Counted from the stretch's first letter, positions 14,017 through 36,245 are shown. The stretch: DNA of 64,000 bases from Burkholderiaceae bacterium (GCA_030123545.1 CP126124.1:1451784-1515783), one strand, 5' to 3'. The notes: a model not told the origin generated them from the sequence alone. Made by a program: numbers and translations.

Positions 14017-15216
14017 ATGGCGAAAATCAAGCTCACTAAGTCCGCAGTCGATGCGGCACAACCGCAGGCGCAAGCCGTCGAACTCCGGGACACGCTGGTG
14101 CCCGGCTTCTTGTGCAAGATTACACCAGCGGGCCGCAAGGTGTTCATGCTCCAGTACCGCACGAACGCCGGCGAGCGGCGCAAGCCCGCATTGGGCCTGT
14201 ACGGGGAACTGACCGTCGAGCAGGCCCGTTCGCTGGCCCAGGAATGGCTGGCCGAGGTGCGCCGGGGCGGCGACCCCAGCGCGGCCAAGGCCGCCGCCCG
14301 TTCAGCCCCCACGGTCAAGGAGCTGTGCACCAAGTTCATGGAGGACTACTCCAAGCAGCGCAACAAGCCCAGCACCCAGCGCGGGTATCAGGCCGTCATC
14401 GACCGCTGCATCGTTCCGATGCTGGGCCGTTTGAAGGTTCAGGACGTGAAGCGGCCGGACGTGGCCACGGCGATGAAGAAGATGGCCCACAAGCCCGCCG
14501 AGGCCAACCGTGCTTTCAGCGTGATGCGCAAGATGTTCAACCTGGCCGAGGTGTGGGGCCACCGGCCTGACGGCACCAACCCTTGCCGCCACGTCCCGAT
14601 GTATCCCAACGGCAGGGCTACCCACCTCATCAGCGACGAGGACATGGGCAAGCTGTTTCGGCGACTGGAGCACATCGAAGCCGAGGGTCTGGAGAACTAC
14701 GTCATCCCGCTGGCGATCCGTCTGCAATTCGAGTTCGCCGGCCGCCGCTCCGAAATCGTGACGCTCCAATGGGATTGGGTGGACATGGACAACCGCCGCG
14801 TGGTCTGGCCGGACAGCAAGACGGGTGGCATGTCCAAGCCCATGAGCGAGGAAGCCTATCGGCTGCTCTCAACGGCGCCACGGCAGGAAGGCATTCCCTA
14901 CGTGCTGCCGTCTCCAAGCCATCCGGGCAAGCATCTGACCACGGGCGAGTATTACAACGGCTGGAGCCGCGCCCTCAAGGCGGCGGGCGCCACGCACGTC
15001 GGCACGCACGGTATCCGCCACCGTTCTGCGACCGACATTGCCAACTCGGGCATCCCGGTCAAGGTCGGCATGGCGCTGACGGCGCACAAGACCGTGGCGA
15101 TGTTCATGCGCTACGTCCACACCGAGGACGATCCGGTGCGCAAGGCGGCTGAACTGGTGGCGAACCGGCGCAAGACGATCACCGAGGCGCAACGTCCCGC
15201 AGAGGTGGCAGCATGA
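14017..15216 (+). CDS. int: tyrosine recombinase / ICE integrase
   Basis: 399 aa. DUF4102-like N-terminus (FLCKITPAGRKVFMLQYR); catalytic HGIRHRSAT and MFMRYVH near the C-terminus. Confidence 0.92.
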   Translation: MAKIKLTKSAVDAAQPQAQAVELRDTLVPGFLCKITPAGRKVFMLQYRTNAGERRKPALGLYGELTVEQARSLAQEWLAEVRRGGDPSAAKAAARSAPTVKELCTKFMEDYSKQRNKPSTQRGYQAVIDRCIVPMLGRLKVQDVKRPDVATAMKKMAHKPAEANRAFSVMRKMFNLAEVWGHRPDGTNPCRHVPMYPNGRATHLISDEDMGKLFRRLEHIEAEGLENYVIPLAIRLQFEFAGRRSEIVTLQWDWVDMDNRRVVWPDSKTGGMSKPMSEEAYRLLSTAPRQEGIPYVLPSPSHPGKHLTTGEYYNGWSRALKAAGATHVGTHGIRHRSATDIANSGIPVKVGMALTAHKTVAMFMRYVHTEDDPVRKAAELVANRRKTITEAQRPAEVAA

Positions 15217-16382
15217 TCAAGAAGACGCCTGCGGCGGCGGGAGCCGCACCCGCCGCTTTGCCTGCCGGCTACGCCGGCATCCACAGCGGCATCGTGGAGC
15301 TGCTTGGCGCTGCGCGCCAGGCGGCGGCACGCAGCGTCAATGCGCTGATGACGGCGAGCTATTGGGAGATTGGCCGCCGCATAGTGGAGGCCGAGCAACA
15401 GGGCAAACGACGTGCGGGTTACGGTGAGCAGTTGATGGAGCGACTGTCCACTGATTTGACCGCGCAGTTTGGGCGGGGCTTTGGCGTGAACAACCTGGAG
15501 AACATGCGGCGGTTCTTCCTCGCATACCCTGTCTCCGAGATTTCCCAGACACTGTCTGGGAAATTGGACAACGAGCTGCCCGACGAGAAATCCCAGACAG
15601 TGTCTGGGAAATTGAGCCTCGCCGAGCTGGCACAGGTGTTCACGCTGCCGTGGTCGGCCTATGTGCGGCTGCTGGTGGTCAAGGACAACCATGCCCGGCG
15701 CTTCTACGAAGCCGAGGCACTGCGCGGCGGCTGGAGCGTGCGCCAGCTTGACCGGCAGATTGGCAGCCAGTTTTACGAGCGCACCGCCTTGTCCAAGGAT
15801 AAGGCGGCGATGCTGGTCAAGGGAGCGGTGGCGAGGCCCGAGGATGCCGTCACGCCCGACGACGCGATCAAAGATCCGTATGTGCTGGAGTTCCTGAATC
15901 TCAAGGACGAGTATTCGGAATCCGATCTGGAGGCCGCGTTGATCCAGCGGCTGGAGGATTTTCTGCTGGAGCTGGGCGAAGGCTTCACCTTCGTCGGCCG
16001 GCAGCGGCGCTTGCGCATTGACCAGACCTGGTATCGGGTCGATCTGCTGTTCTACCATCGCAAGTTGCGTTGCTTGGTCATCATCGACTTGAAGCTGGGC
16101 AGCCTGACCCATGCGGACGTGGGCCAGATGCACATGTATTGCAACTACGCCAAGGAGCATTGGGCCTATCCCGATGAGAACCCGCCCGTGGGGTTGATTC
16201 TCTGTGCTGACAAGGGCCATGCGCTGGCGCGGTATGCCTTGGAAGGTTTGCCGACGAAGGTGATGGCGGCGAACTACCGTACCGTGTTGCCAGATGCCGA
16301 GCTGTTGCAGAAAGAGCTGGAAACCACGCGGCGCTTGCTGGAGTCGCGTGTGGTGAGGCAGCCCAAGAAGCTCCGGCAATAA
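15213..16382 (+). CDS. YhcG/DUF1016-family PD-(D/E)XK nuclease-domain protein
   Basis: 389 aa: NALMTASYWEIGRRIVE, LPWSAYVRLL, and a C-terminal RIDQTWYRVDLLFYHRKLRCLVIIDLKLG nuclease core. ATGA overlap with the int stop. Confidence 0.75.
   Translation: MIKKTPAAAGAAPAALPAGYAGIHSGIVELLGAARQAAARSVNALMTASYWEIGRRIVEAEQQGKRRAGYGEQLMERLSTDLTAQFGRGFGVNNLENMRRFFLAYPVSEISQTLSGKLDNELPDEKSQTVSGKLSLAELAQVFTLPWSAYVRLLVVKDNHARRFYEAEALRGGWSVRQLDRQIGSQFYERTALSKDKAAMLVKGAVARPEDAVTPDDAIKDPYVLEFLNLKDEYSESDLEAALIQRLEDFLLELGEGFTFVGRQRRLRIDQTWYRVDLLFYHRKLRCLVIIDLKLGSLTHADVGQMHMYCNYAKEHWAYPDENPPVGLILCADKGHALARYALEGLPTKVMAANYRTVLPDAELLQKELETTRRLLESRVVRQPKKLRQ
15541..15609. repeat. two palindromes (TTTCCCAGACAcTGTCTGGGAAA and TCCCAGACAgTGTCTGGGA) inside the DUF1016 CDS
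   Basis: 15541-15563 (11-bp arms) and 15591-15609 (9-bp arms). They encode the tandem peptide SQTLSGKL / SQTVSGKL. Confidence 0.8.
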
Positions 16383-16507: not shown

Positions 16508-16539
16508 CAAAGGCGGGTGTGTGCAGTGGGCGGGGTGTA

Positions 16540-16707
16540 GGCGGTCTTGCTGTTCCCTTCACCGTATCACGGCGTTCTCGCCGTCAAGGGCGGCGCGCGC
16601 GGGTGCGCGCTTGCGTCCTGGCGGCCGTCTGCGACCCCTGACTGCTTGCGCTGCGCCGTGCTCCCGACGGTTCCGGGCAATTCCGCCCGAGCAACCGGAG
16701 CACGATC
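16540..16707 (+). repeat. A-type leader repeat, copy A1 (ends at the radC RBS/ATG)
   Basis: 61 nt identical to A2 (GGCGGTCTTGCTGTTCCCTTCACCGTATCACGGCGTTCTCGCCGTCAAGGGCGGCGCGCGC), then a 50-nt identical block, ending GCAACCGGAG-N7-ATG. Confidence 0.9.
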
Positions 16708-17217
16708 ATGTCGCAACTGTCCTTTTCCTCGTTCGATGCCTCGCTGATGGTGCGTGATGCGCAGGGCCGCTACCTGCTGGCGACGACTGACCAGATTCTG
16801 GAGGCCGCGCGCCAGGCCATCGAGCACAAGATGCAGCGCGGTGCCTCGTTCACTTCACCGGCGGCGGTCAAGGAGTACCTGTGCGCCAAGCTGGCCGGCT
16901 ACGAGCACGAAGTCTTTGCGGTGCTGTTCCTCGATTCGCAGCATCGCCTGATCGAATACACAGAGATGTTTCGCGGCACCATCGACAGTGCATCGGTGTA
17001 CCCGCGCGAGTTGGTCAAGGAGGCACTGCGGCTCAATGCGGCGGCGGTCATCGTGTCGCACAACCATCCGAGCGGGAACCCGGAGCCAAGCGCGGCCGAC
17101 CGGGCGCTGACCCAGCGGCTCAAGGAGTCGCTGGCGCTGGTGGACGTTCGCACGTTGGATCACATCGTCGTCACGGGCAGCAGCACCACGTCATTCGCCG
17201 AACGCGGCCTGATCTGA
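16708..17217 (+). CDS. radC: RadC-family JAB/MPN-domain protein
   Basis: 169 aa with the HNHPSGNPEPSAADRALTQRL metalloprotease motif. Confidence 0.9.
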   Translation: MSQLSFSSFDASLMVRDAQGRYLLATTDQILEAARQAIEHKMQRGASFTSPAAVKEYLCAKLAGYEHEVFAVLFLDSQHRLIEYTEMFRGTIDSASVYPRELVKEALRLNAAAVIVSHNHPSGNPEPSAADRALTQRLKESLALVDVRTLDHIVVTGSSTTSFAERGLI

Positions 17218-17220
17218 CCG

Positions 17221-17242
17221 AGGGGGCTTCAGCCCCCTTTTT
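17221..17242 (+). terminator. rho-independent terminator after radC
   Basis: AGGGGGC-TTCA-GCCCCCT followed by TTTTT. Confidence 0.8.
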
Positions 17243-17265
17243 GCTGCGTCCGGCAGCGCAACTCC

Positions 17266-17296
17266 GGCCCGCGCGGGCCTGCGCGCTTCGCTTGCC
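17266..17296 (+). repeat. B-type repeat, short copy B2 (3' core only)
   Basis: CGCGGGCCTGCGCGCTTCGCTTGCC core, followed by a G-rich spacer and A2. Confidence 0.7.
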
Positions 17297-17326
17297 GAAA
17301 GCCGAGGAGCATGGAGGTGTGAGGGA

Positions 17327-17492
17327 GGCGGTCTTGCTGTTCCCTTCACCGTATCACGGCGTTCTCGCCGTCAAGGGCGGCGCGCGCCTTGCGCGCTGGC
17401 GTCCTGGCGGCCGTCTGCGACCCCTGACTGCTTGCGCTGCGCCGTGCTGGCGACGGTTCCGGGCAATTCCGCCCGTGCAACCGGAGATCGTC
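17327..17492 (+). repeat. A-type leader repeat, copy A2
   Basis: See A1. Ends GCAACCGGAG-N6-ATG of the Zn-ribbon orphan. Confidence 0.9.
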
Positions 17493-17885
17493 ATGAACGA
17501 CAAATCACACGTTTCACTCGAACAGCATGTTTGCCTCGTTTGCGGCACGGCGTTCGATACCGGCGCCATCCTGCTGGACAAGCGCCTGCGCGCGAGCATG
17601 GAGCGCCATACGGCGACCGGCTGGGGTCTGTGCCCCGAGCATCGGAAGCTGGCCGACGATGGCTTCGTCGCGCTGGTCGAATGCGATCCGCAGCGCAGCG
17701 GTTCGCAGGCCGGTGGCCGCATGAAGCCCGAGCAGGCGTACCGGACGGGGCGGCTGGCGCACCTGCGGCGCACGGTGTTCGCGCAGATGTTCAACGTGCC
17801 GATCGCGGACGAGCAGGCTTGCGTGTTCGTCGAGCCTGGCGTGATCGACCAGTTGCAGTCGATGACGGCATCGGCGGCGAACTGA
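17493..17885 (+). CDS. hypothetical small protein with a CxxC...CPEH putative zinc ribbon
   Basis: 130 aa: MNDKSHVSLEQHVCLVCGTAFDTG...GWGLCPEHRKL. GGAG 6 nt upstream of the ATG. The upstream part of track ORF 16881..17885 is repeat A2. Confidence 0.6.
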   Translation: MNDKSHVSLEQHVCLVCGTAFDTGAILLDKRLRASMERHTATGWGLCPEHRKLADDGFVALVECDPQRSGSQAGGRMKPEQAYRTGRLAHLRRTVFAQMFNVPIADEQACVFVEPGVIDQLQSMTASAAN

Positions 17886-17904
17886 TCGCGCCGGACAGCC
17901 TTCG

Positions 17905-17939
17905 GTGCGTCGTCCCTGCGGGGGCGGCGCACTTTTTTT
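17905..17939 (+). terminator. rho-independent terminator after the Zn-ribbon gene
   Basis: GTGCGTCGTCCC-TGC-GGGGCGGCGCAC (12 bp including 2 G:U pairs) followed by T7. Confidence 0.8.
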
Positions 17940-17966
17940 CTGCTGCGCCCGGTGCCGGTTCCTCCG

Positions 17967-17996
17967 CGCCTGCGGCGCTGCGCGCTTCGCTTGCCA
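17967..17996 (+). repeat. B-type repeat, short copy B3
   Basis: GCGCCTGCGGCGCTGCGCGCTTCGCTTGCC, identical to the core of B5 (22917-22946). Confidence 0.75.
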
Positions 17997-18019
17997 GTCC
18001 GTGCCTTTGTTGGAGGGTG

Positions 18020-18184
18020 GCGGCTTGCTGTTCCCTTCATCGTGCCACGGCGTTCGCGCCGTCAAGGGCTGCGCGCCGAGGGCGCTTGCGTCCTGGCGGC
18101 CGTCGTTGCCCCCTGACTGCTTGCGCTGCGCCGTGCCCCGGAAGGGTCGGGCAATTCCGCCCGGCAACCTTTCAGGAGTTCACC
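18020..18184 (+). repeat. A-type leader repeat, copy A3 (diverged)
   Basis: GGCGGCTTGCTGTTCCCTTCATCGTGCCACGGCGTTCGCGCCGTCAAGGGC...CCTGACTGCTTGCGCTGCGCCGTGC...GGGCAATTCCGCCCGGCAACC, ending AGGAG-N7-ATG. Confidence 0.85.
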
Positions 18185-18535
18185 ATGAACCACGCACTCA
18201 TCACCGACGAGCAGCGCATCGTGCTGCTGGCCAATGGCCGCGAATCCTTGCAGAACCCGGACTTCGATCCGGCCCCCATGGTCAAGCTGTTCACGCCGGA
18301 TGCTGGCGCGACCTGGCTGCTGACCGAGATTGATCCCGATGACCACGACCACGCCTTCGGCCTTTACGACCTGGGGCTGGGTGAGCCGGAAATTGGCTGG
18401 GTCAGCCTGGGTGAGCTGGCGACGGTGCGCGGCGGGTTGGGCCTGCCGATTGAGCGCGACCTGTCTTTTCGGGCCGAGAAGCGGTTGAGCGCCTATGCGC
18501 ACGATGAGCGGCTGGCCGGGCGGGTCATCGTCTGA
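18185..18535 (+). CDS. DUF2958 domain protein (paralog 1)
   Basis: 116 aa: KLFTPDAGATWLLTEIDPDDHDHAFGLYDLGLGEPEIGWVSLGEL. Confidence 0.8.
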   Translation: MNHALITDEQRIVLLANGRESLQNPDFDPAPMVKLFTPDAGATWLLTEIDPDDHDHAFGLYDLGLGEPEIGWVSLGELATVRGGLGLPIERDLSFRAEKRLSAYAHDERLAGRVIV

Positions 18536-18591
18536 CCCGGCCCTGGGGGCGTCGCGGGACGCCCCTTCGCATCGCGCCCACGAGGCGCGAT

Positions 18592-18696
18592 GCCTGCGCG
18601 CCTTCGACTTGCTCTCCAGGGGAAAGCCCTGCGGGCTATCCCCGCCGCGCAGGCTTGGCGCCCCTGAACACCGCCGACCCGGCTACGCCGGATCGG
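18592..18696 (+). repeat. degenerate B tail plus C-type repeat, copy C1
   Basis: CTCCAGGGGAAAGCCCTGCGGGCTATCCCCGCCGCGCAGGCTTGGCGCCCCTGA...CCGGCTACGCCGGATCGG. Confidence 0.8.
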
Positions 18697-18849
18697 CCAG
18701 ACCACGGCAGTCGCTGTCGAACCTGTTTCCCGATGACTAGCACATGAGCTTGTGCATCAAGCATTGAAGTCCGGGCGTCCCCGGCCCCCTGCGAGATGGC
18801 CGGTCGCGCTGTCGTGCTGCGCATCGACCCCCCTGCGGGGTTTCGCCCC

Positions 18850-18934: not shown

Positions 18935-19274
18935 GTGCGGTCGGCGTGTGGGAAGGCCGTTGCCATGTCCAGCCGTCTTCCCTGACTTCATCACCTTGTC
19001 CGCGACTGTAGCCCGCGGCCTGGTGGCGTCAAGGCGCGCAGGGCCGTGTCCTCGGCTGCGCCTGCGGGCCGCACCAACCCTGCGCTTGTCTCCTTGACGG
19101 CCCCCGTCCACGGGCTCCCTTTCGTCGCGGGCGATGAACTCAGGAAAGACGGTGGCAACAGGGCCAACCGGGTTCCTCGTGCCGACCGCACCGAACAGCC
19201 GAAAGGCTGGGCTCCGAATCTAGGAATCCGGTGTGCGGTTTTCTTCAACAGCCATTTTGTTCAGGAGAAAGAGC

Positions 19275-20105
19275 ATGCAACTCGCATCCCGCTTCGCTTC
19301 CCACTCCCCGGCGCTGCGCAGCGACTACCCGCTGTCCGATGACCAGATTCATCGCGTGGCCCCGTCCATCTTCGCGGATGCCCCGCACGAAAGCCGTTCG
19401 CAGCGGTACGCCTATATCCCCACCGCCGCCGTACTGACCGAGCTTCGCAAAGAAGGCTTTCAGCCTTTCATGGTGACGCAGACCCGCGTGCGCGATGAAG
19501 GCAAGCGCGAGCACACGAAACACATGCTGCGCCTGCGCCATGCCAGCCAGATCAACGGCGCGGAGGCTAACGAAATCGTGCTGCTGAACTCCCATGACGG
19601 CACGAGCAGCTATCAGATGCTGGCCGGAATGTTCCGCTTCGTTTGCAGCAATGGCCTTGTCTGCGGCGACACCGTGGCGGACGTGCGCGTGCCCCACAAG
19701 GGCGACGTGGCCGGTTCCGTCATCGAAGGCGCTTTCGAGGTGTTGAGCGGCTTCGAGCGCGTGAAGGAATCCCGCGATGCCATGCGCGCAATCACGCTGG
19801 ACGAAGGCGAGTCCGAAGTGTTCGCCCGTTCCGCGCTGGCCCTCAAGTACGACCCCGCCGACAACAAGCCCGCGCCCATCACCGAATCGCAAATCCTGAT
19901 GCCGCGCCGGTTCGACGACCGCCGCCCCGACCTGTGGAGCGTGTTCAACCGCACGCAGGAGAACTTGACCAAGGGCGGATTGCATGGCCGCAGCGCCAAC
20001 GGACGCCGCCAGCAGACCCGACCCGTGCAGGGCATTGATTCCGATGTGCGCCTGAACCGCGCCCTCTGGATGCTGGCCGATGGCCTGCGCCAGTTGAAAG
20101 CCTGA
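19275..20105 (+). CDS. DUF932 domain protein
   Basis: 276 aa from MQLASRF (AGGAGA RBS): LLNSHDGTSSYQMLAGMFRFVCSNGLVCG. Confidence 0.8.
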   Translation: MQLASRFASHSPALRSDYPLSDDQIHRVAPSIFADAPHESRSQRYAYIPTAAVLTELRKEGFQPFMVTQTRVRDEGKREHTKHMLRLRHASQINGAEANEIVLLNSHDGTSSYQMLAGMFRFVCSNGLVCGDTVADVRVPHKGDVAGSVIEGAFEVLSGFERVKESRDAMRAITLDEGESEVFARSALALKYDPADNKPAPITESQILMPRRFDDRRPDLWSVFNRTQENLTKGGLHGRSANGRRQQTRPVQGIDSDVRLNRALWMLADGLRQLKA

Positions 20106-20170: not shown

Positions 20171-22222
20171 ATGAACGCCGTTACCCAAACCGAAGCCCGC
20201 GCCATCCAAGCCCCCGCGCTGGAAGCCGCCGACCCGACCAAGAACCTGATTCTGGTTCCGCTGTCGCGGCTGGTGCTGCGCCCCACGGGCCGCAACGTGC
20301 GCAAGACCCCGCGCATGTCCATCCCCGAACTGGCTGCGAGCATCCAGCGCGTGGGCCTGCTGCAAAACCTGATCGTCATTGCATCCGCCGATGGCGAGCA
20401 TTACGAAGTCGTGGCCGGTGGCCGACGCCTCGCAGCCCTCAAGCTGCTGGCGAAAAAGCACCGCATCAGCAAGGAATGGGAAGTGCCTTGCCTGCTGGTG
20501 GCCGATGGCACCGCCCGCACGGCCAGCCTCACCGAAAACGTGCAGCGCGAAGCCATGCACCCCGCAGACCAGTTCGAGGCTTTCGCCGCGCTGGTGGCCG
20601 AAGGCCGTCCCATCGAGGACATTGCGGCAGATTTCTCCGTTACGCCGCTGGTGGTGCAGCGCCGATTGAAGCTGGCGAACGTCTCGCCCCGCCTCATGGC
20701 TGACTATCGCGCCGATGCCGTGAGCCTTGACCAGTTGATGGCCCTTGCCATCACCGATGACCACGCCGCGCAGGAAAGCGCGTTCTACGATGCGCCAACC
20801 TGGCAGCGCGGCCCGTCCGCGCTGCGCGAACGCCTCACCGAGCGCGAAATCGACGCCTACCGGCATCCGCTGGTGCGCTTCGTCGGGCTGGACACCTACG
20901 AGGCCGCAGGCGGTGGCATCCGCCGTGACCTGTTCGCGGAAGATGACGCGGGCGTGTATCTGACCGATGCCGCGCTGCTGGAACGGCTGGCGCAAGACAA
21001 GCTGGCAGGCATCGCCGCCACTGTCCGCGTCGAGGGTTGGGCGTGGGTGGATGCCACGCCGGGCGTGACCCATGCCGACCTGCACGCTTTCCAACGCGCA
21101 CCGAAGGAGCGCCGCGAACCGAACAAGCGCGAAGCGGCACGCATCGAGAGGCTGCAAGCCAAGATGCACGAACTGGCCGAAGCCGTGGATGCTGCGCTGG
21201 ACGCCGACGACGAGGACAAGGCCGACGCCTTGCAGGAGGAAGGCGAAACCCTGGGCGAGCAGTTGCAGGCGCTGGAAGATGGCTTGCAAGGGTACGGCGC
21301 GAACGTGAAGGCCGCAGCCGGTGCCATTGTCAGCATCGACCGCAACGGTGAGGCCGTCATTCATCGCGGCCTGATGCGCGAGGTCGAGGCCAAGGCGCTG
21401 CGCACACTGGAACGGCTGCGCCAAGGGTTCAGCGGCGAGGATGCCGAGAACAACGACGAAGGCGAGGACGACAAGCAACCCAAGAGCGTCGCCATGTCTG
21501 ACCGGCTGGCGCAACGCTTGAGCGCCCACCGCACCGCCGCGCTGCAAATCGAAGTCGCACGGCATCCGCAAGCCGCACTGGCTGCCGTGGTGCATGGCAT
21601 GGTGCAGACCGTCTTGCAGGAACGCCGCTACGGCCTCAACCGTGATTCTTTGCCGCTGGGCGTGAGCCTGAAAGTGCAAGACCGGCTGGAAGGCATGGCC
21701 CCGGACTGGCCTCACTCCGCCGCCGCCGTGGCACTGCGCGAACTGCAACAGGTGGCGGGCGAAGCCTTGCCGGAGGACAGCGCCGAACTGTTCGCCGCGC
21801 TGCTGGCGAAGCCGCAAGACGAACTGGTGCGGCTGCTGGCCGTGTGCGTGGCATCCACGGTGGACGTGGTGACGCCTCGCGCCACGCCGCGCCAGCCCGG
21901 CGCGGAACTGGCGCAGGCCGTGGGCCTCGACATGGCCGCATGGTGGAAGCCGACCGCCGAAGGCTACTTCAAGCACGTTTCCAAGGCCGTGATTCTGGAT
22001 GCCGTGGGCGCGTTTGCCCCGGAGTCCGTCACCCGGCTGGCGAAGCTCAAGAAGGCCGACATTGCCAGCGAAGCCGAGCGGCTGGCCGATGGCACGGGCT
22101 GGATGCCCGCCATCTTCAAGGCCGAAGGCCCGCAGGAGGCCCAGGAGGCAGGCCCGGAGCAGGACGCCCCGGAGGATGCCGAGGCAATGGCGGATGAACC
22201 CGCCGAGGCGCTGGCCGCTTGA
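20171..22222 (+). CDS. ParB/Srx-nuclease-domain protein with a long acidic C-terminal region
   Basis: 683 aa: LQNLIVIASADGEHYEVVAGGRRLAAL, TENVQREAMHPADQFEAF. Confidence 0.85.
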   Translation: MNAVTQTEARAIQAPALEAADPTKNLILVPLSRLVLRPTGRNVRKTPRMSIPELAASIQRVGLLQNLIVIASADGEHYEVVAGGRRLAALKLLAKKHRISKEWEVPCLLVADGTARTASLTENVQREAMHPADQFEAFAALVAEGRPIEDIAADFSVTPLVVQRRLKLANVSPRLMADYRADAVSLDQLMALAITDDHAAQESAFYDAPTWQRGPSALRERLTEREIDAYRHPLVRFVGLDTYEAAGGGIRRDLFAEDDAGVYLTDAALLERLAQDKLAGIAATVRVEGWAWVDATPGVTHADLHAFQRAPKERREPNKREAARIERLQAKMHELAEAVDAALDADDEDKADALQEEGETLGEQLQALEDGLQGYGANVKAAAGAIVSIDRNGEAVIHRGLMREVEAKALRTLERLRQGFSGEDAENNDEGEDDKQPKSVAMSDRLAQRLSAHRTAALQIEVARHPQAALAAVVHGMVQTVLQERRYGLNRDSLPLGVSLKVQDRLEGMAPDWPHSAAAVALRELQQVAGEALPEDSAELFAALLAKPQDELVRLLAVCVASTVDVVTPRATPRQPGAELAQAVGLDMAAWWKPTAEGYFKHVSKAVILDAVGAFAPESVTRLAKLKKADIASEAERLADGTGWMPAIFKAEGPQEAQEAGPEQDAPEDAEAMADEPAEALAA

Positions 22223-22494: not shown

Positions 22495-22845
22495 CCGCGT
22501 TCAGCACCGCGCCCAGGTCGTTCCGTCCTGGGCGCGGTGAACTTCAAAATCCGGGCGCGGCGGTGGCCGCGCCCGATGTTCAAGCCCAACAGCCAAATCA
22601 GAACGCCGCCGCCTTCGCGGTGGCTCATGCGGCGGCGTTGAAGTAGGCGGGCCTCCCGCCCGGTAATGGGCAGGCCCACATGGGCCTGCAAGCCGAAGCG
22701 CCCACCCTGCGCGGGAATCATCAGCAGTTTTCGGCTTGCCGCGTGCATACCCCGCAGCGTGGGCCGCTTCCATTTCATCGGCGGCATATCCGCGTTTCCT
22801 GCATGGAAATCTGGAACGGCCTGGGCGTGTCGGCTCGATGCGCCG

Positions 22846-23028
22846 CCGGGCTTTCGGGCTGCGCCCCGTGCCGTCTTTGCCGTCACGGCCATTCGGCTTC
22901 AATCCCTCACGCCTTCGCGCCTGCGGCGCTGCGCGCTTCGCTTGCCTCCGGGGGATCGGCACAAGGCCCATCCCCGCCGCGCAGGCTTGGCGCCCCTCGA
23001 TGCCGCCGAACCGGCTGCGCCGGATCGG
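22846..23028 (+). repeat. B5-C2 composite non-coding repeat
   Basis: Aligns along its length, with indels, to 24074-24259. Confidence 0.85.
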
Positions 23029-23596
23029 CCCGGCCAGTGCCCCGCCGCGATGGACAGTGCATTGGCGAACACGCTGGAGCCTGCTGCGGCAGGTTGTGCA
23101 AATGCGTGCCCTCCCCAACGCTGGCGGTTCCTGCCCATCACGTCACGAAGGACGGTTCACGGACATCCCGCCCGGCATCGCTATGGAGCTTCCACGCCAC
23201 GCCTCAAGACCAGCGCCGCAAGGTGCGGCAGGGGTGTTCTCGCTTGTCGTCGGGTGGTTGACCTGGCCCACGTCAGTGGGCGAGTCGGTGCAGCCTTCGT
23301 GCGGGGATGCCGAGCCGGCCTTGTCTCCTTTCGGTGCGGTTCGGCCCAAGGCGTCCTTGTGTTGTTGTGAATCCTGGCGGGGGCGCGGCTGCGCCTCGGG
23401 CTTCATGGCTGCAACCGTCCAGCGAAAACAATTTCCCCTGCGCTGCGCGCATTCCTCGCGGGACAAATTCTTTTCGCCTCCCGGCTCTCCACTGCGTTGC
23501 GACCACAAGCGGTGCAGCCAGCCCGTCCCCCGCCGGCCGGATCACAACAAGGACGCGATGGGCGCGAACCTTGTTCAACCGAACGGAGAAAACATC

Positions 23597-23911
23597 ATGG
23601 CCAACATCGGCACCTTCACCGCAGACAAAGACGGCTTCGCCGGCACGCTTCGCACCCTGACGCTCAACGTCAAGGTCAAGCTGGTTCCCAACGACAAGGG
23701 GGACAACGAGAAAGCACCGGACTTCCGCTTGCAGGCCGCCAGCCACGACATCGGCGCGGCATGGAAGAAGACCAGCGAGGCCGGGCGGGAGTACATCTCC
23801 GTGACCCTCGACGATCCTTCGTTCCCGGCCACGGTCTACGCCCGCCTGATCGAAGGCGAGAACGGCACGCACGACCTGATCTGGTCGCGCAGCAAGCCCC
23901 AGGCGGCCTGA
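23597..23911 (+). CDS. DUF736 domain protein
   Basis: 104 aa: [31 protein letters not shown]... GGAGAA RBS. The 5' 860 nt of track ORF 22736..23911 is non-coding repeat DNA. Confidence 0.85.
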
Positions 23912-24073: not shown

Positions 24074-24259
24074 CCGGGCTTTGCGGGCTGCGCCCCATGC
24101 CGACTTCGCCGTCATGGCCATTCGGCTTCAATCCCTATCGCGGCTTCGCGCCGGTGGCGCTGCGCGCTGCGCTTGCCTCCAGGGGAAAGCCCTGCGGCCT
24201 ATCCCCGCCGCGCGATGCTTGGCGCCCCTGAAGTCCCCGAACCGGCTGCGCCGGATCGG
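24074..24259 (+). repeat. B6-C3 composite non-coding repeat
   Basis: See B5-C2. Lies between the DUF736 stop and the 3' end of the XRE gene. Confidence 0.85.
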
Positions 24260-24270
24260 TGGCCCAGCGC

Positions 24271-24564
24271 CTACGGCTGGGCCGCTGCTGCGAGCTGGCT
24301 TTCAGCCTCGCTCATCAGCACTGCCGTGCTGCATTCGAGTGCGCTGGCAATTTTGAAGATGATCGCCAGCGTGGGCATGTGTTCGCCACGCTCGACCTTG
24401 CCCATGTGCGAACGCTCGATGCCGGCGAGGTTCGCCAGCGATTCCTGCGCGATGCCGCGCTCCGTCCGCAGCGCGCGCACCGCCGCGCCGAAGGCTTGAG
24501 CCAATTCGGCATCGTAGGTGGTGGCGCCCGCTGGCCGGCCGCGGTGGATGGATCGCTTCTGCAT
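24271..24564 (-). CDS. XRE-family helix-turn-helix repressor
   Basis: 97 aa from MQKRSIHRG: RTERGIAQESLANLAGIERSHMGKVERGEHMPTLAIIFKIASAL. Confidence 0.85.
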   Translation of the reverse strand: MQKRSIHRGRPAGATTYDAELAQAFGAAVRALRTERGIAQESLANLAGIERSHMGKVERGEHMPTLAIIFKIASALECSTAVLMSEAESQLAAAAQP

Positions 24565-24822
24565 GGACAGAAGCGTCAATTCGCAGCACAATTAAAACCA
24601 CGTTATCTTTAACTCATTCATGCCTTTGGCCCTTATTCGTGCTTTTACGGAAATCCGCTTCTGCGGATTCCGACAGAACCGGAAAACCGCCAACGTGTAT
24701 TTGCAGATTTCTACAATTGAGCTTTTGCGCTTTCGTGTTTCCACGGCTTTCGTGGAATACGCATCCATGCTTTGGCGTGAATGTGCAAAACCGACATTCC
24801 GTGTTGGAACAGGAGCACCACG

Positions 24823-28406: not shown

Positions 28407-28675
28407 CGGCGAAGCCGCCACCCCGCGCAAAGCGCGTCGGCATCGGCGCGCGTCCGCCGGCGAATCCGCACGCTGAAGCGTGGATTCGCCAGGGCGACGC
28501 CGATGCGCTGGGCAAGGGCGACCTCTACACGGCCCGCCTCACCCTCGACATCACGCCCGCCATGCGGGCGCGCATCAAGGTGTCGGCCTTTACGCAGGGC
28601 ATGACCGTGGCCGACCTGCTGCGCGGCCTGCTGGAACGGGAGTTTCCAGAACATCGCGGGGAGAACACACCATGA
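28403..28675 (+). CDS. small partition/centromere-binding-like protein (ribbon-helix-helix C-terminus)
   Basis: 90 aa. ATGA overlap with the parA stop. LTLDITPAMRARIKVSAFTQGMTVADLLRGLLE. Confidence 0.6.
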   Translation: MTAKPPPRAKRVGIGARPPANPHAEAWIRQGDADALGKGDLYTARLTLDITPAMRARIKVSAFTQGMTVADLLRGLLEREFPEHRGENTP

Positions 28676-29205
28676 CCGCATCCGCTTCGCCTGCCGCTGG
28701 CGCGGCTACGGCTGCGCTTGCAGCACCTTCCGGCCAGCCCGCCAGCACACCGCTGACGCGCGTTGCACTGGCCTACATTGAACCGCGCTTCAAGCTCTAC
28801 CTGCGCTTCGGCGAACCTGCGCGCACGCTCCAGCTCGACCGCTGGCGGCGCTGCGCGGTGTTCCTGCCGAGCGCGATTTTCTGCCGCATCCGCTGGCAGG
28901 CCAACGACTACGGCACCGTGCGCTGGCAACTCATGGTGATGCAGGCTTGCACGCCGCTGAACGCGGCGCAGCGCATTCCCGGCGTGCAGCCGGGCGCGCG
29001 CCTGCTGTTGCACGCCGAAGGCGAGCAATCGGTGCGCGCCGTTCTGGAACGCATCGACGCCATCGAGGCGCTGGACATCGCGCCTGTCGGCGCCTCGCCC
29101 GCGTACTGGCGCACGCTCGCCAACCGGCTCGCTGCGCGCCTGCCGCTGCCCGAATACACCGCCGAGCGGCACGCCGCCTGGCTGGCAGGGAGGGCACTGC
29201 CATGA
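28672..29205 (+). CDS. DUF2840 domain protein
   Basis: 177 aa: LTRVALAYIEPRFKLYLRFGEP... Start overlaps the upstream stop. Confidence 0.7.
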   Translation: MTASASPAAGAATAALAAPSGQPASTPLTRVALAYIEPRFKLYLRFGEPARTLQLDRWRRCAVFLPSAIFCRIRWQANDYGTVRWQLMVMQACTPLNAAQRIPGVQPGARLLLHAEGEQSVRAVLERIDAIEALDIAPVGASPAYWRTLANRLAARLPLPEYTAERHAAWLAGRALP

Positions 29206-29789
29206 CCGCAGTTTCCACTTCCGGCACCGCGCCGCCCCCTCGCTTGCGCGTGCGCGCTCGCCTCGTGTTGGCGGGCCTGTCCGCCTGCGGCCTCGCTGCG
29301 CTGGCCTGGGCGTCCTTCGTGCATCCACTGCCGCGCCTGACCTACAACCCGTCCGACAGCGTGGCGGTCGGTTGGTATCGCGTCGATCCGCTCGACCGTC
29401 GCACCAGCTCGCCGCCACGTCGGCTGGAAGTGGGTAGCATCGTGCTGGTGCCGCTGCCTGCCGAGGCTGCCGCGCTCGCTGCGCAGCGCAGCTACCTGCC
29501 GACGCGCATCCCACTGCTCAAGCGCGTGGGCGCGGTCGCACCGCAGGAGGTGTGCGTCATTGGGGGCAGCGTCCGCATCGACGGCGTGCCTTCGGCCGCC
29601 GTGCTGTCTGCCGATCGCTGGGGCCGTCCGCTGCCATCCTGGTCGCAGTGCCGCCGCCTTCGGCCTGGCGAGCTGTTCCTGCTCAGCGTCACCAATCCGG
29701 CGTCGTTCGACAGCCGGTATTTCGGGCCGGTCAGCGTAGCCGCCGTGATCGGCGTTGCGCGCCCGGTCTGGCTGGAGCCTCGCCCATGA
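29202..29789 (+). CDS. traF: S26-family signal peptidase TraF (pilin maturation)
   Basis: 195 aa: YNPSDSVAVGWYRV, LLKRVGAV, SFDSRYFGPV. Confidence 0.85.
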   Translation: MTAVSTSGTAPPPRLRVRARLVLAGLSACGLAALAWASFVHPLPRLTYNPSDSVAVGWYRVDPLDRRTSSPPRRLEVGSIVLVPLPAEAAALAAQRSYLPTRIPLLKRVGAVAPQEVCVIGGSVRIDGVPSAAVLSADRWGRPLPSWSQCRRLRPGELFLLSVTNPASFDSRYFGPVSVAAVIGVARPVWLEPRP

Positions 29790-30241
29790 TCGCCACCGAT
29801 TCGCTGCGCATCATCGTGCTATCGGGCGTGTCGTTCTGCTGGCCGTCGCCGTGTCGTCGCGCGTGCAGTGCCGGTGCCAATACTTCGCATTGGGCACCGC
29901 ACTTCGCGCTGTCTCCGGCGCAGCCGTCCAACGTGCAGGCGTCTTGCCTCGAACGCGGCTGGACTTCGGCCATCGCCGTGTTCGCCGGGGCGCTGGCTGC
30001 TCGCGCAGCAGCGTCGCCGGGCCGCCGCGGCCCGGAGCGCCAGCGAGGGGCAAAGGCGGAAGGCAAGACAAAAGGGTGCGGCACCTGTCGGCCCGCAAAG
30101 CCAGTCTGCACGTGGGGGTGGCGCGGCACGGAGCGGCTTCGCCGCCGTGCCGCGTGGGGCGCGAAGCCCGCGCCAATGCAGGCATGTCCGCGTGCTTCGC
30201 ACGACCGGACACGCCAGAGCTTGCAGGGAGCGCAGCCATGA
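29786..30241 (+). CDS. hypothetical ORF between traF and the relaxase (the Msi107 position in ICEMlSymR7A)
   Basis: ATGA overlaps at both ends (traF stop and relaxase start). Good GC3 and a signal-like MIATDSLRIIVLSG start, but the remainder is Cys/Trp/Arg-rich and not protein-like. Confidence 0.3.
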   Translation: MIATDSLRIIVLSGVSFCWPSPCRRACSAGANTSHWAPHFALSPAQPSNVQASCLERGWTSAIAVFAGALAARAAASPGRRGPERQRGAKAEGKTKGCGTCRPAKPVCTWGWRGTERLRRRAAWGAKPAPMQACPRASHDRTRQSLQGAQP

Positions 30242-32232
30242 CCGACCGCCGCGACGATGATTTCCGCATCCGCCCCAGTGCCCCGAAGAACCGGGGCCAG
30301 GGCTTCGTCTCCAAGGTGCTCAGGCAGGCAGGCAAGGCCAGCAGCGGCAAGTCCTCGGTGCGCCGTCCTGGCGCCAGCGGCAGCGGACAGCGCGCCGGCC
30401 AGCGGCCCGGCTCGCGCCTGGGACGCGGCCACACGGCAGCGCGCTTCGCGGGGGCGAAGCTCACGCCCATGTCGCGGCGCGTGGCCATCAAGACGCTGCT
30501 GGTCAATCAGCAGCGGGCCAGCCCGCAGTCGCTCGCCAAGCACCTGCGCTACATCGAGCGCGACGGCGTGGGCCGCGATGGCGAGCCGGGCCAAGCCTAC
30601 GGGCCGCAGACCGATACCGCCGACCTCGACGCCTTCAAGGAACGCTGCGCCGATGACCGGCATCATTTCCGCTTCATCCTCTCGCCCGAGGATGGCGCCG
30701 AGCTGGAAGACCTGCGCACCTACACGCGGCACCTCATGGGCCGGATGGAGGCCGACCTGGGCACGGGCCTCGATTGGGTGGCCGTCAACCACTGGAACAC
30801 CGACAACCCACACATGCACATCGTCGTGCGCGGGCGCGACGACACCGGCAAAGACCTCATCATCGCGGGCGACTACATCGCCGGTGGCTTCCGCCATCGC
30901 GCCGCCGAACTGGCGACCGAATGGCTGGGGCCGCGCACCGAGCTGGAGATCCAGCAGACCTTGCAACGCGAGGTGGAGCAAGAGCGGTGGACGAGCCTCG
31001 ACCGCACGCTGCAACGCGAGGCCGGCGAGGATGGCCGGGTGCAGATCGAACGCTTCAACGAACTGCGGCTGCAACGCCAGCGCCTGCTGCTGATCGGCCG
31101 CCTGCAACGCTTGCAGCGCCTGGGCCTGGCCGACGAGATGCAGCCGGGCACCTGGGCCGTTCATGCCGATGCGGAAAAGACGCTGCGCGCCCTGGGCGAG
31201 CGCGGCGACATCATCCGCACCATGCAGCGGGCCATGCGTGGCGAGCCGCGCGAGCTGGCGGTGTTCGAGCCGGGCCAAGGTGCCGATGGAAGTGGCCGAA
31301 CCATCCTCGGCCGCGTGGCCGCGAAGGGGCTGGCCGACGAACTGCGCGACCGAGGCTATCTGGTCATCGACGGAGTGGACGGCAAGGCCCACTACGTCGC
31401 GCTCAACGCCCGCGACGAACTGGTGAACTATCCGGCCGGCGCCGTGGTGGAAGTGAAGGGTTCGGCCGACGTGCGGGCGGCAGACAAGAACATCGCCGCG
31501 CTGGCGAGCGATGGCCTGTACCGCACCGACCATCACCTAGCAATTGCGCAGGGTCAAGCCGTGCCCGGCCGCGATCCGCAGGAAGTCGTCGCCGCCCACG
31601 TCCGCCGGCTCGAAGCCCTGCGCCGGGCCGGCATCGTGGAGCGCGTGGCCGAGGGGCTATGGAAGGTGCCGGACGATCTGCCCGAGCGTGGCCGCCAGTA
31701 TGACGCGCAGCGCCTGGGCGGCGTGGCTGTGGAACTGAAATCGCACCTGCCCATCGAGCGGCAGGCCCGCGTGATGGGGGCCACTTGGCTCGACCAACAA
31801 CTGATCGGCGGCGGCTCGGGCCTGGGCGACCTGGGCTTTGGCAGCGAGGCCAAACAGGCGATGCAGCAGCGCGCCGACTTCTTGGCTGAACAGGGGCTTG
31901 CAGAGCGTCGCGGGCAGCGCGTGATCCTGGCGCGCAACCTGCTGGGCACGCTGCGCTACCGGGAACTGGCGCAGGCCGCCAAAGACATTGCGGCCGACAC
32001 CGGCCTGGAGCATCGCCCGGTGGCCGACGGGCAGCGCGTGGCCGGTATCTACCGGCGCAGCGTCATGCTCGCCAGCGGTCGGTACGCGATGCTGGACGAC
32101 GGCATGGGCTTCAGCTTGGTGCCGTGGAAGCCAGTGATCGAGCAGCGACTGGGGCAGCAGCTTGCGGCGACGGTGCGTGGCGGAGCGGCCTCATGGGAAA
32201 TCGGGCGTCGGCTTGGAGTTTCTTTGAGCTAG
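30238..32232 (+). CDS. conjugative relaxase (VirD2-like N-terminus plus DUF3363)
   Basis: 664 aa from MTDRRDDDFRIRP. Histidine triad HWNTDNPHMHIVVRG; YIERDG motif. Confidence 0.88.
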   Translation: MTDRRDDDFRIRPSAPKNRGQGFVSKVLRQAGKASSGKSSVRRPGASGSGQRAGQRPGSRLGRGHTAARFAGAKLTPMSRRVAIKTLLVNQQRASPQSLAKHLRYIERDGVGRDGEPGQAYGPQTDTADLDAFKERCADDRHHFRFILSPEDGAELEDLRTYTRHLMGRMEADLGTGLDWVAVNHWNTDNPHMHIVVRGRDDTGKDLIIAGDYIAGGFRHRAAELATEWLGPRTELEIQQTLQREVEQERWTSLDRTLQREAGEDGRVQIERFNELRLQRQRLLLIGRLQRLQRLGLADEMQPGTWAVHADAEKTLRALGERGDIIRTMQRAMRGEPRELAVFEPGQGADGSGRTILGRVAAKGLADELRDRGYLVIDGVDGKAHYVALNARDELVNYPAGAVVEVKGSADVRAADKNIAALASDGLYRTDHHLAIAQGQAVPGRDPQEVVAAHVRRLEALRRAGIVERVAEGLWKVPDDLPERGRQYDAQRLGGVAVELKSHLPIERQARVMGATWLDQQLIGGGSGLGDLGFGSEAKQAMQQRADFLAEQGLAERRGQRVILARNLLGTLRYRELAQAAKDIAADTGLEHRPVADGQRVAGIYRRSVMLASGRYAMLDDGMGFSLVPWKPVIEQRLGQQLAATVRGGAASWEIGRRLGVSLS

Positions 32233-32770: not shown

Positions 32771-32791
32771 TTGCCTGAAAAGGAGAATTTC

Positions 32792-35236: not shown

Positions 35237-35258
35237 AACTGAATATGGAGTGTTGAAA

Positions 35259-35549
35259 ATGGGAATTCTGGATCGAATTTTTGGCGGGCATGGCGGGGGG
35301 CATGGCAGTTCCCACGGGCATGGCAATAGCCGCGGCCACGGTAGCCCCAGCAGCCACGACTGGGGGCACAATCCAGCGCCTTCGGTCAGTGGCATCACCT
35401 GCCCGCAATGCAAAGCGATCAATCCGAACGGCGCTCGCTTTTGCGGCCAGTGCGGGACATCGCTGGTGCCAGCGTCGTGCACGAAGTGCAGTAGCGTCAT
35501 TCCGATCGGCGCGAAATTCTGTGCTCAGTGCGGCAACGCGGTAACTTAA
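35259..35549 (+). CDS. His/Gly-rich double zinc-ribbon protein
   Basis: 96 aa: GGHGGGHGSSHGHGNSRGHGSPSSHDWGH, then CPQC...CGQC and CTKC...CAQC. Confidence 0.7.
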   Translation: MGILDRIFGGHGGGHGSSHGHGNSRGHGSPSSHDWGHNPAPSVSGITCPQCKAINPNGARFCGQCGTSLVPASCTKCSSVIPIGAKFCAQCGNAVT

Positions 35550-35552
35550 GTC

Positions 35553-36245
35553 ATGGTGATCTCGGCCTGGATCTACACCTTGATCCCGGCAGCGGCCGCC
35601 ATCATCGGAGCTGCGGTCGCGGTGAACGTGCGGCCGGGGCCAACACTGGTCAGCGCGATTCAGCATTTCGCCGCTGGCGTCGTGTTCGCGGCGGCGGCCG
35701 GCGAAATCTTGCCCGACATCATGCACCGGGCCTCGCCTTGGGCGACGATGATCGGCGGCGGAATCGGCGTCGCCACCATGCTGCTGGTGAAGCATCTGGA
35801 AGCGTTGGCGAAGGGGCCGGCCGGTCTCCTGACCGTGATCGGCATCGACATCCTGATTGATGGCTTGGTGCTTGGTATCGGGTTTGCGGCTGGCCCAAAG
35901 GTCGGCTTGCTTCTGACCATCGCCCTGACCATCGAGGTTCTGTTCCTGGGATTGACAGTGGCCACGGAACTCGGCGAGAGCGTTCGCTCCCGTGCCAGGG
36001 TCGTCTGGATCACGGCCGCGCTCGTGCTCTTGCTGCCGATCGGGGCCTTGCTTGGAGCGCCGGTGGCGCTGTTGCCCAACCCTCTTCTGACTGGCTTCTT
36101 CGCGTTTGGTCTGATTGCGTTGCTCTACCTCGTGACCGAAGAACTGCTGATCGAAGCACACGAAACGCCAGATCGCCCCTGGGTGACGGCGATGTTCTTT
36201 GTCGGCTTTCTGGCGCTTCTCCTGCTGGAAGAAGTAATTGGCTAG
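35553..36245 (+). CDS. ZIP-family divalent metal transporter
   Basis: 230 aa, multi-pass: HFAAGVVFAAAAGEILPD, LVTEELLIEAHE. Starts 4 nt after the zinc-ribbon stop. Confidence 0.7.
   Translation: MVISAWIYTLIPAAAAIIGAAVAVNVRPGPTLVSAIQHFAAGVVFAAAAGEILPDIMHRASPWATMIGGGIGVATMLLVKHLEALAKGPAGLLTVIGIDILIDGLVLGIGFAAGPKVGLLLTIALTIEVLFLGLTVATELGESVRSRARVVWITAALVLLLPIGALLGAPVALLPNPLLTGFFAFGLIALLYLVTEELLIEAHETPDRPWVTAMFFVGFLALLLLEEVIG

Follow-up and report, generated by a model that had tools for sequence, protein, structure and literature searches.

A folded repeat upstream of leading-region gene cassettes in a Tn4371-family integrative and conjugative element: a candidate Frpo-like single-stranded DNA promoter

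Conjugative plasmids use early expression from the incoming single strand to bring anti-defence and SOS-suppressing proteins into play ahead of any host reaction. To our knowledge, promoters of single-stranded DNA (ssDNA) have so far been known only from a few enterobacterial plasmids (IncF, IncI). Until 2025, the evidence for them consisted of one sequence family, Frpo/ssi, and the two classes that have been added since are all on IncF and IncI plasmids. In Frpo of plasmid F, the transferred (T) strand folds into a stem-loop that rebuilds the −35 and −10 boxes and drives early expression, which is switched off by conversion to double-stranded DNA (dsDNA) (PMC9849209). For the class 2 (ardA/klcA) and class 3 (M.EcoGIX) ssDNA promoters of pESBL and F, transcription starts were confirmed by 5′ rapid amplification of cDNA ends (5′-RACE) in 2025 (PMC12672017). 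Surveys detect ssDNA promoters by BLAST to few known sequences at E ≤ 1e-6 (PMC11541004, PMC12826799). Upstream of radC and other mobile-DNA genes in Proteobacteria, a structured candidate cis-regulatory RNA of unknown function, the radC RNA motif RF01754, has been described (PMC2864571). The subject of this study is element A, a repeat found in three copies (A1, A2 and A3) in a window of 64,000 nt from a Burkholderiaceae bacterium (GCA_030123545.1, CP126124.1:1451784-1515783), the gene order of which is the published scaffold of the Tn4371-family integrative and conjugative elements (ICEs) (PMC2789088). Element A is, with a probability of roughly 0.55, an Frpo-like ssDNA promoter of a new class without homology to the known ones, serving monocistronic leading-region cassettes of this ICE. 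A preliminary description of the window had raised the idea of such promoters as a hypothesis; it is the best fit to the comparative evidence, which supports rather than proves it.

A repeat search located three tandem cassettes, each consisting of the repeat and a small gene, at the places given in the preliminary description. Each copy runs into the Shine-Dalgarno (SD) sequence GGAG and the ATG of a different gene, encoding RadC, a Zn-ribbon orphan protein, and a DUF2958 protein, respectively. The long identical blocks reported for A1 and A2 and the divergence of A3 were also recovered: a 62-nt repeat block shows 100% identity for A1 and A2, with 81% for A3, and for a block of 97 nt these values are 96% and 72%. 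Core blocks of 26 and 16 nt occur three times each in the 64 kb, compared with 0.00 and 0.31 occurrences expected from shuffles. The hairpin that had been noted behind each gene is present as well, with T-runs in the first two cassettes and without one in the third.

The fold of element A was derived from 97 distinct copies, 81 of them at <93% identity, and its helices were defined from covariation scans and single-sequence folds; RNAalifold recovered only part of the fold on the full alignment. Positions are given in A1 numbering (window coordinate = 16525 + position). For the 34 pairs, 91.4% of cells are paired, whereas shifting the 3′ partners by 1-3 columns lowers this to 29-46%. Pairs changed on both sides number 18 (8.5 ± 1.4 in shuffles) and compensatory cells 147 (39 in shuffles), and none of 500 shuffles attained any of the observed pairing or covariation values. 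In the preliminary description, a local ACGGCG-TTCT-CGCCGT hairpin was taken for a conserved pairing. This part had to be given up: the local pair 47-56 changes without compensation (GC 40, CC 22, TC 10), and the hairpin was dropped in favour of the long-range helix P2, in which this 5′ strand has a covarying partner, the distal CGCCGTG, some 85 nt further downstream (pair 47-131: GC 41, CG 15, UA 7). The GCGCGC hairpin, in which pairing had been seen to persist despite changed sequence, corresponds to helix Pa and covaries; together with Pb it closes a three-way junction. Within P3, the pair G65-C110 is Watson-Crick in 81/81 copies with four pair types, and A62·C113 appears as AC in 47 and as AU in 32 copies, which on the minus strand reads T·G and T-A. 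Judged by these sequence comparisons, the compensatory changes in four helices prove that the folded single strand of element A is under selection.

Folding of both strands, the comparison suggested in the preliminary description, gave a more probable fold on the minus strand when DNA parameters were used (pair probability, minus versus plus: 0.67 vs 0.46 for P2 and 0.56 vs 0.35 for P3). Wobble pairs in P2, P2b and P3 are compatible with the minus strand only in 59 cells and with the plus strand only in 12, whereas in P5 12 wobbles favour the plus and four the minus strand. In P5, the pair G150-C163 occurs as GC in 65 and as AU in eight copies. Helix P1 contains an invariant TTGC/GCAA part and a GGCGG/CCGCC part that is paired in 83% of cases, and its pair probability on minus-strand DNA is 0.54-0.70. 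P1 and P5 use the same nucleotides and therefore cannot both exist in one molecule. This conflict would disappear if P1 formed in DNA and P5 in RNA, a division with which the wobble bias agrees: P1 is proposed to be the downstream duplex of a promoter mimic, and P5 the 5′-terminal stem-loop of the mRNA.

The minus-strand motif TTGACG-N15-TGaTACGGT had previously been noticed in A1 and A2. It is present in all three copies (A3: TGGCACGAT); the 15 nt are the distance from hexamer to hexamer, and from TTGACG to TG the spacer measures 12 nt, as it does in 80/81 copies. In sequence terms, the pattern is a TGnTAnnnT extended −10 signature combined with a near-consensus −35. The bases of TTGACG are conserved in 81, 80, 76, 81, 74, and 67 of 81 copies, the T of the TG in 76 and its G in all 81. 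Position −12 is T in 55 and C in 23 copies, A(−11) and T(−7) are each kept in 80/81 (plus-strand equivalents in A1: T16565 and A16561), and positions −10, −9, and −8 are variable (0.99, 0.85, and 0.24 bit). The −35, TG, and −10 positions were absent from the search pattern with which the copies were gathered. In the window, the minus-strand promoter motif occurs four times, compared with 0.34 expected occurrences.

The arrangement of these boxes in the fold is that of TTGAC inside P3, TG as the last two pairs of P2, and TACGGT in a loop, which has 16 nt in 56/81 copies (range 15-19) and in which A(−11) is the most exposed −10 base, with an unpaired probability of 0.78 under DNA parameters. The opposite loop has 14-15 nt in 70/81 copies and is closed on its far side by P1. 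In this model, the minus-strand fold would resemble an open promoter complex. The boxes are located in the 3′ arm of the minus strand, and bound polymerase would therefore copy the 5′ arm and run into the gene. Counted from −7 along the template loop, the predicted +1 is position 149-150 (~16674-16675); it is a purine in 79/81 copies and the first nucleotide of P5, and the ATG follows 16-22 nt behind this hairpin. From this promoter geometry, transcription would be predicted to start at ~16674 in A1, 17460 in A2, and 18148 in A3.

Upstream sequences were compared in 86 non-redundant regions aligned on the 5′ edge of element A. Conservation does not exceed 0.3 bit per position between −150 and −20, and a plus-strand sigma-70-like site within 150 nt upstream was found in 0/86 copies. 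This agrees with the preliminary description, in which no canonical plus-strand −35/−10 was seen: there is no plus-strand sigma-70 promoter at the cassettes. Between 13000 and 30000, the sole plus-strand sigma-70-like site is TGGACA-17-CACAAT at 24564, beside the XRE repressor gene, and the minus-strand sigma-70-like sites of this region include all of the hairpin-embedded ones.

A second putative promoter, element B, lies upstream of the DUF932 gene. It is a long imperfect hairpin with 47 pairs, 83% of them Watson-Crick, and a stem that covaries among 34 copies; RNAalifold failed on this element. Its TTGACG is conserved in 34, 34, 34, 34, 31, and 34 copies per base and is followed by a 16-nt spacer of variable sequence and by TAC(A/G)GT, the T, A, and T of which are each found in 34/34. 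Folding of the minus strand would give 60 wobbles and folding of the plus strand 15, a clearer difference than in element A. Element B was matched on both strands by nhmmer, and the DNA folding energy of its minus strand is −45 kcal/mol. Elements A and B have only the CCTTGACG motif in common. On the basis of these sequence features, element B is probably a second, unrelated ssDNA promoter of the same design as element A.

Element A is not restricted to this ICE. A blastn search detected it in 298 plasmid records at 80-92% identity; 260 of the records are typed as conjugative, and the copies usually number 2-4 per record and are mostly ahead of radC. Diverged copies precede radC in unrelated backbones, namely a Salmonella Infantis megaplasmid, a PromA-like plasmid, Nitrosomonas p2 (annotated without a relaxase entry), and an Acidovorax MOBF plasmid. 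In species-representative genomes, a pattern scan followed by a profile search of the loci gave at least 112 copies in at least 84 loci. Among the matches listed, these belong to Burkholderiales, Xanthomonadales, Pseudomonas, Rhodocyclales, and others, and each copy lies on the strand of an open reading frame (ORF) and ends at its ATG. The ORFs behind element A belong to four families only: DUF932, DUF2958, the Zn-ribbon orphan, and the RadC family, the members of which have N-termini of many kinds; RadC-family genes are the downstream partner of most copies. The repeat and its long-range fold are conserved in related elements, a point on which the preliminary description had made its hypothesis depend: the family occurs in ICEs and plasmids, and its helices covary. 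The diverged copies at loci L099, L049, L079, and L017, from Steroidobacteraceae and related metagenome-assembled genomes, show no ATG at the spacing seen elsewhere and run on into a conserved ..AGGCCAC.AAGCGGCGCCGGA.. sequence, which may represent a longer leader or another downstream arrangement.

Element A was not found in 50,697 phage records, although 45 of these hold RadC homologues. A scan of IMG/VR with the 5′ motif yielded 92 loci. Of these, 15 are true copies, and the other 77 windows match by chance in unrelated coding DNA (33 clusters). The true copies adjoin the Tn4371-type ICE's own int, YhcG, DUF932, and ParB genes and are therefore mis-called proviruses; an apparent association of element A with phages was rejected. 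No Rfam family matched element A at any threshold; the output consisted of spurious microRNA models on an unrelated palindrome at 15536-15616 and of h2cR/narK at E 2.8-6.6. A literature search gave no paper that connects Tn4371 ICEs, radC, or DUF2958 with ssDNA promoters or with a leader element. Element A is undescribed and widespread, whichever reading holds.

The fold, box conservation, loop sizes, gene association, and lack of an upstream plus-strand promoter are results of the sequence comparison; the transferred strand, the binding of polymerase, the start site, and an activity confined to ssDNA are inferred, as follows. The minus strand would be the transferred strand, as is suggested by gene order: the cassettes point toward, and run co-directional with, the genes for the relaxase, the type IV coupling protein (T4CP), and the type IV secretion system (T4SS). 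In the PromA-like plasmid pSN0517-01, which carries element A, radC-kleA-ardC-kfrA-primase-ssb-korAB-mobC-relaxase are likewise all encoded on one strand. On transfer of the excised island, the minus strand would enter the recipient first at the cassette end. The entered single strand would then fold, and P2, P2b, and P3, capped by Pa and Pb, would provide a duplex with the −35 TTGACG and the TG. The −10 bases (T/C-A-n-n-n-T) would be unpaired in the 16-nt loop, the opposite 14-15-nt loop of the same strand would serve as template, and P1 would rebuild a short duplex beyond the loops, so that the fold would mimic a promoter complex that is already open. The host's sigma-70 RNA polymerase would bind to it and start at the three predicted positions, leading to a short mRNA that consists of P5, the SD, and the gene and ends at the terminator of the same cassette. 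Synthesis of the complementary strand would abolish the fold, and the cassette genes would fall silent because the boxes then point away from the gene. As an extra layer, the template-loop segment in read-through RNA from dsDNA may pair with the SD region and keep translation off.

A more far-reaching version of this proposal is advanced only tentatively, as a possibility with less than even chances. In this version, A and B would be the first ssDNA promoters of ICEs, and A would be a structurally new, compact three-way-junction type that offers RNA polymerase a pre-melted bubble, made up of a duplex −35 and TG, an unpaired −10, a non-complementary template loop, and a downstream duplex. The same nucleotides would be dual-coded, as downstream duplex in DNA and as protective 5′ hairpin in mRNA, an anti-SD lock would act on read-through RNA, and RadC, DUF2958, DUF932, and the orphan protein would be made only while the island is single-stranded in a new host.

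Several observations weigh against a promoter function on the minus strand. The hexamer spacing of 15 nt is poor for sigma-70 on duplex DNA and must be rescued by the TG motif or by a bulged stem. The spacer GCGAGAACGCCG and the opposite sequence TGCGCTGCG are almost invariant, which is not required of a promoter and hints at another constraint, such as an RNA or protein site. The invariance of TGCGCTGCG and of GGCAAT.CCGCC is partly built into the genome scan pattern, and both blocks are kept in 13/15 independently selected copies. A segment of the template loop is complementary to the SD region beyond chance (mean z −1.46, with 39% of copies below −1.64), and the plus strand gives the more stable pairing in 55 copies, the minus strand in 20, which points to an RNA that holds sequence upstream of the predicted start. 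P1 is beyond the reach of covariation, both of its sides being invariant, and the wobble counts of element A are dominated by A62·C113, the remaining wobbles not separating the strands. The transferred strand is deduced from gene order; in a search for a nic site, ATCCTGY occurred at chance frequency and none was near the relaxase gene, inverted repeats at 28.9-29.9 kb gave no information on oriT, and the oriT of Tn4371-family ICEs is unmapped (PMC2789088). When the real Frpo served as control, its T strand folded into a hairpin (−87 kcal/mol), and neither strand of Frpo1 or Frpo2 yielded contiguous −35/−10 boxes in simple consensus scans; the control neither confirms nor refutes the arm geometry of element A.

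The SD-region complementarity is at the same time the best evidence for the main rival, which is considered less likely: a plus-strand leader RNA with a structured 5′ region, an alternative that the preliminary description had named as a structured 5′ UTR. Element A would then be a new cis-regulatory motif with a role comparable to that of the radC RNA motif, on a transcript coming from upstream. P2, P2b, P3, Pa, and Pb would form a three-way-junction domain, P5 and the pairing of 16667-16672 with the SD would hide the ribosome-binding site, and formation of P1 from GGCGG.CUUGC and GCAAU.CCGCC would open this site in response to a protein, a ligand, or temperature. All helices can form equally in RNA, the end of the element invariably coincides with the SD and ATG of a same-strand gene, and P5 covaries with G·U on the plus strand. 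Mutually exclusive helices such as P1 and P5 are typical of riboswitch-like switches, the near-invariant internal loops CGUUCUCG and UGCGCUGCG resemble binding sites, and a precedent is the structured motif upstream of radC and other DNA-related genes (Weinberg 2010, PMC2864571). However, there is no promoter for such a leader, as upstream conservation is nil and none of the 86 regions has a plus-strand sigma-70-like site, and the cassettes are insulated by terminators. The antisense TTGACG-N12-TG-n-YA-nnn-T would be left unexplained, as would the location of the −35 in a stem and of the −10 in a loop and the same design of element B. Moreover, the 16 × 15 internal loop and the A·C mismatch in P3 (58% of copies) are awkward for RNA, and there is no match in Rfam, RF01754 included. 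If this reading were true, a widespread structured leader RNA would be missing from Rfam.

The fold with its sigma-70 boxes would be equally suited to priming, and Frpo has been described as both a promoter and a site of primer RNA (Masai and Arai 1997, as cited in PMC9849209 and PMC12672017). Element A might accordingly be a single-strand initiation site or single-strand origin (ssi/sso), at which RNA polymerase or primase starts complementary-strand synthesis, gene expression being secondary or absent; several copies along the leading region would speed conversion to dsDNA. This is regarded as improbable: an SD and an ATG, which priming does not need, are attached in every one of about 100 copies, with four gene families only, and the covarying hairpin exactly at the predicted RNA 5′ end and the cassettes' own terminators fit the production of mRNA. 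Priming and promoter roles are, however, not mutually exclusive. The cassette-like layout next to an integrase, in which one repeat precedes different genes, would also be expected of scars left by module shuffling, and the minus-strand boxes could fire leftwards on duplex DNA as an antisense promoter, in both cases without any function of a folded strand. Such explanations appear very improbable, as the compensatory changes in four helices indicate selection on the single-stranded fold and the helices would be missing from a transcript that runs leftwards from the minus-strand promoter. The same applies to the related idea of an integron-like attC site, given that direct reading of A1-A3 revealed no core sites (GTTRRRY/RYYYAAC), that the integrase is of the ordinary arm-binding tyrosine type (domains Phage_integrase and Arm-DNA-bind_3), and that the element is located 5′ of each ORF and includes the SD.

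The coordinates of elements A and B and of the cassettes are compiled in Table 1. In the window, int (14017-15216) is followed by a gene for a YhcG/DUF1016 nuclease (15213-16382), the three cassettes, and genes for DUF932 (19233-20105), a ParB-like protein (20171-22222), DUF736 (23597-23911), and DUF2840 (28480-29205). Downstream of the cassettes and also on the plus strand are the genes for a VirD2/RlxS-type relaxase (29755-32232), the T4CP (47103-49106), and TrbE (51233-53668); of the genes listed, that of the XRE repressor (24271-24591) is on the minus strand and all others are on the plus strand. The orphan protein of the second cassette has no Pfam or NCBIfam match. Cargo genes at 32771-45616, between relaxase and T4CP, encode a heavy-metal P-type ATPase and a three-part resistance-nodulation-division (RND) efflux system (OEP, HlyD-type, AcrB-type). 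Within the ORF of the YhcG/DUF1016 nuclease, two 31-nt palindromic units with perfect 22-nt arms are found at 15536-15616; the Pfam N-domain of this protein spans 164 aa for a profile of 137 positions, which looks like an in-frame insertion of about 81 nt at this site.

Table 1. Coordinates and characteristics of elements A and B and of the three gene cassettes
Feature	Coordinates	Strand	Remarks
A1	16537-16710	− (proposed functional strand); gene +	complete folded unit upstream of radC
A2	17324-17495	− (proposed)	upstream of Zn-ribbon orphan gene
A3	18015-18187	− (proposed)	diverged copy upstream of DUF2958
−35 hexamer TTGACG, A1	16582-16587	−	inside P3; A2 17369-17374, A3 18060-18065
Extended −10 TGaTACGGT, A1	16561-16569	−	A2 17348-17356, A3 18039-18047
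Template-side loop, 14-15 nt	16661-16675	−	faces −10 loop
P1	16540-16550 with 16677-16687		positions 15-19 : 158-162 and 22-25 : 152-155; GGCGG.CTTGC with GCAAT.CCGCC
P2	16568-16574 with 16654-16660		positions 43-49 : 129-135; 5′ strand CACGGCG, partner CGCCGTG; 95% paired, double changes in 4/7 pairs
P2b			positions 54-56 : 123-125; covariation-supported
P3	16583-16590 with 16635-16642		positions 58-65 : 110-117; 5′ strand GTCAAGGG
Pa	16595-16610		positions 70-75 : 80-85; apical hairpin, double changes in 5/6 pairs
Pb	16614-16627		positions 89-93 : 98-102; apical hairpin
P5	16674-16689	+	positions 149-153 : 160-164; CGGGC-AAUUCC-GCCCG; A2 17460-17475, A3 18148-18163
SD GGAG and radC ATG	16697-16710	+	SD region complementary to 16667-16672
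RadC gene	16708-17217	+	first cassette
Terminator 3′ of radC	17221-17247	+	GGGGGC-TTCA-GCCCCC + T5, read from sequence
Zn-ribbon orphan gene	17493-17885	+	second cassette; 130 aa, Cys-rich
Terminator 3′ of orphan gene	17904-17940	+	hairpin 17904-17933 + T-run
DUF2958 gene	18185-18535	+	third cassette
Hairpin 3′ of DUF2958	18546-18565		without T-run
Element B	19000-19130	−	long imperfect hairpin upstream of DUF932
−35 TTGACG, element B	19032-19027	−	in stem (GTCAAGG / CCTTGAC)
−10 TACAGT, element B	19010-19005	−	3 × 7 internal loop, then 7-bp duplex

A weaker similarity among A1-A3 extends about 60 nt upstream of the repeats, where a box CTGCGCGCTTCGCTTGCC is located. This box occurs six times in the window, always on the plus strand (16490, 17279, 17978, 18917, 22929, and 24160; 0.55 expected), in intergenic parts of the leading region. 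It is present in 37/86 copies at a distance of 23-44 nt and is consequently not a constant part of the element A family. A promoter function of the box was rejected for lack of a −10-like sequence at 16-18 nt, for its absence from 49/86 copies, and for its variable distance, and a sigma-54 site for lack of a GG-N10-GC register. Often directly behind this box, a three-hairpin module (AGGGGAAAGCCC-TGC-GGGCTATCCCC; GCGC..GGCGCC; CCGGC-TNC-GCCGG) is repeated at ~18608-18700, ~22946-23040, and ~24178-24270 in one orientation throughout; it may be a REP-like (repetitive extragenic palindromic) sequence, a terminator, or another single-strand feature. Box and module are both found in a stretch of about 950 nt without genes upstream of DUF736 (22650-23597), which also contains an A/T-rich imperfect hairpin near 23420-23470; a search of this stretch for promoter-like sites on both strands found none.

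If element A is an ssDNA promoter, the range of the mechanism widens to include ICEs as well as GC-rich broad-host-range plasmids of Beta- and Gammaproteobacteria, and it covers Tn4371-type islands embedded in clinical IncHI2 and IncP-2 megaplasmids and in the Salmonella Infantis megaplasmid. RadC, DUF2958, DUF932, and the Zn-ribbon orphan would then be marked as proteins required in the minutes just after entry, and their functions would become directly testable. A searchable sequence-and-structure model would be gained, as would a small defined open-complex mimic for the study of sigma-70 polymerase on folded ssDNA.

Among known systems, the radC RNA motif is similar to element A in location only, as most copies of the latter are directly upstream of RadC-family genes. 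RF01754 gave no match at gathering score in the window or in six related loci, no match at E ≤ 1 over 10 kb, and none at E ≤ 10 on a 221-nt query. Because this Rfam model was not matched, element A belongs to another family by sequence and structure. Integron attC sites are, like element A, imperfect hairpins that work as folded single strands, and they are located between promoterless cassettes beside an integrase. In contrast to attC sites, element A is devoid of R′ (GTTRRRY) and R′′ (RYYYAAC) cores, is not accompanied by an IntI integrase, and is found 5′ rather than 3′ of the ORF, with an SD and with four gene families; an identity with attC was rejected on these grounds.

In design and setting, element A is similar to the class 1 elements (Frpo1 and Frpo2 of F; ssi1-3 of ColIb-P9/pESBL), which are repeated non-coding elements ahead of leading genes that point to oriT. 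In plasmid F (NC_002483, 52000-68000), the leading genes all face oriT, in the same direction as traM, traJ, and traY; they comprise a methylase gene, an antirestriction gene, ssb, a gene for a large ParB-like protein, psiB, and DUF932, and two Frpo copies precede gene units. Frpo1 and Frpo2 are 90-92% identical (PMC9849209). Frpo1 drives a ygeA-DUF932 unit. DUF932 and ParB-like genes are found in this ICE, too, so that the F leading region and the ICE share gene content in addition to layout. As in class 1, several copies are each located ahead of a leading-gene unit (three here in addition to element B, and 2-4 in many loci), and the single strand of element A would fold with the −35 in a stem and the −10 in an adjacent loop, the fold being favoured on minus-strand DNA. 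A brief surge of expression, ended by the conversion to dsDNA, is proposed for element A as well. There is no homology to Frpo1/2: only random 9-13-nt matches of element A to the 16-kb F leading region, both Frpo copies included, were obtained.

The class 1 elements are near-continuous hairpins of about 300 nt, whereas element A has about 170 nt, a three-way junction, and a large symmetric loop with a fully unpaired −10. Unlike Frpo, it has an extended −10 (TG) and a hexamer spacing of 15 nt, runs up to the SD and ATG, and is a GC-rich element of ICEs and broad-host-range plasmids of Beta- and Gammaproteobacteria. The promoters of classes 2 and 3 differ in hosts and replicons; compared by their description as large stem-loops only, they are resembled more by element B than by element A. 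These classes are non-homologous hairpins with the same role ahead of anti-defence or leading genes, a series in which A and B would be further classes.

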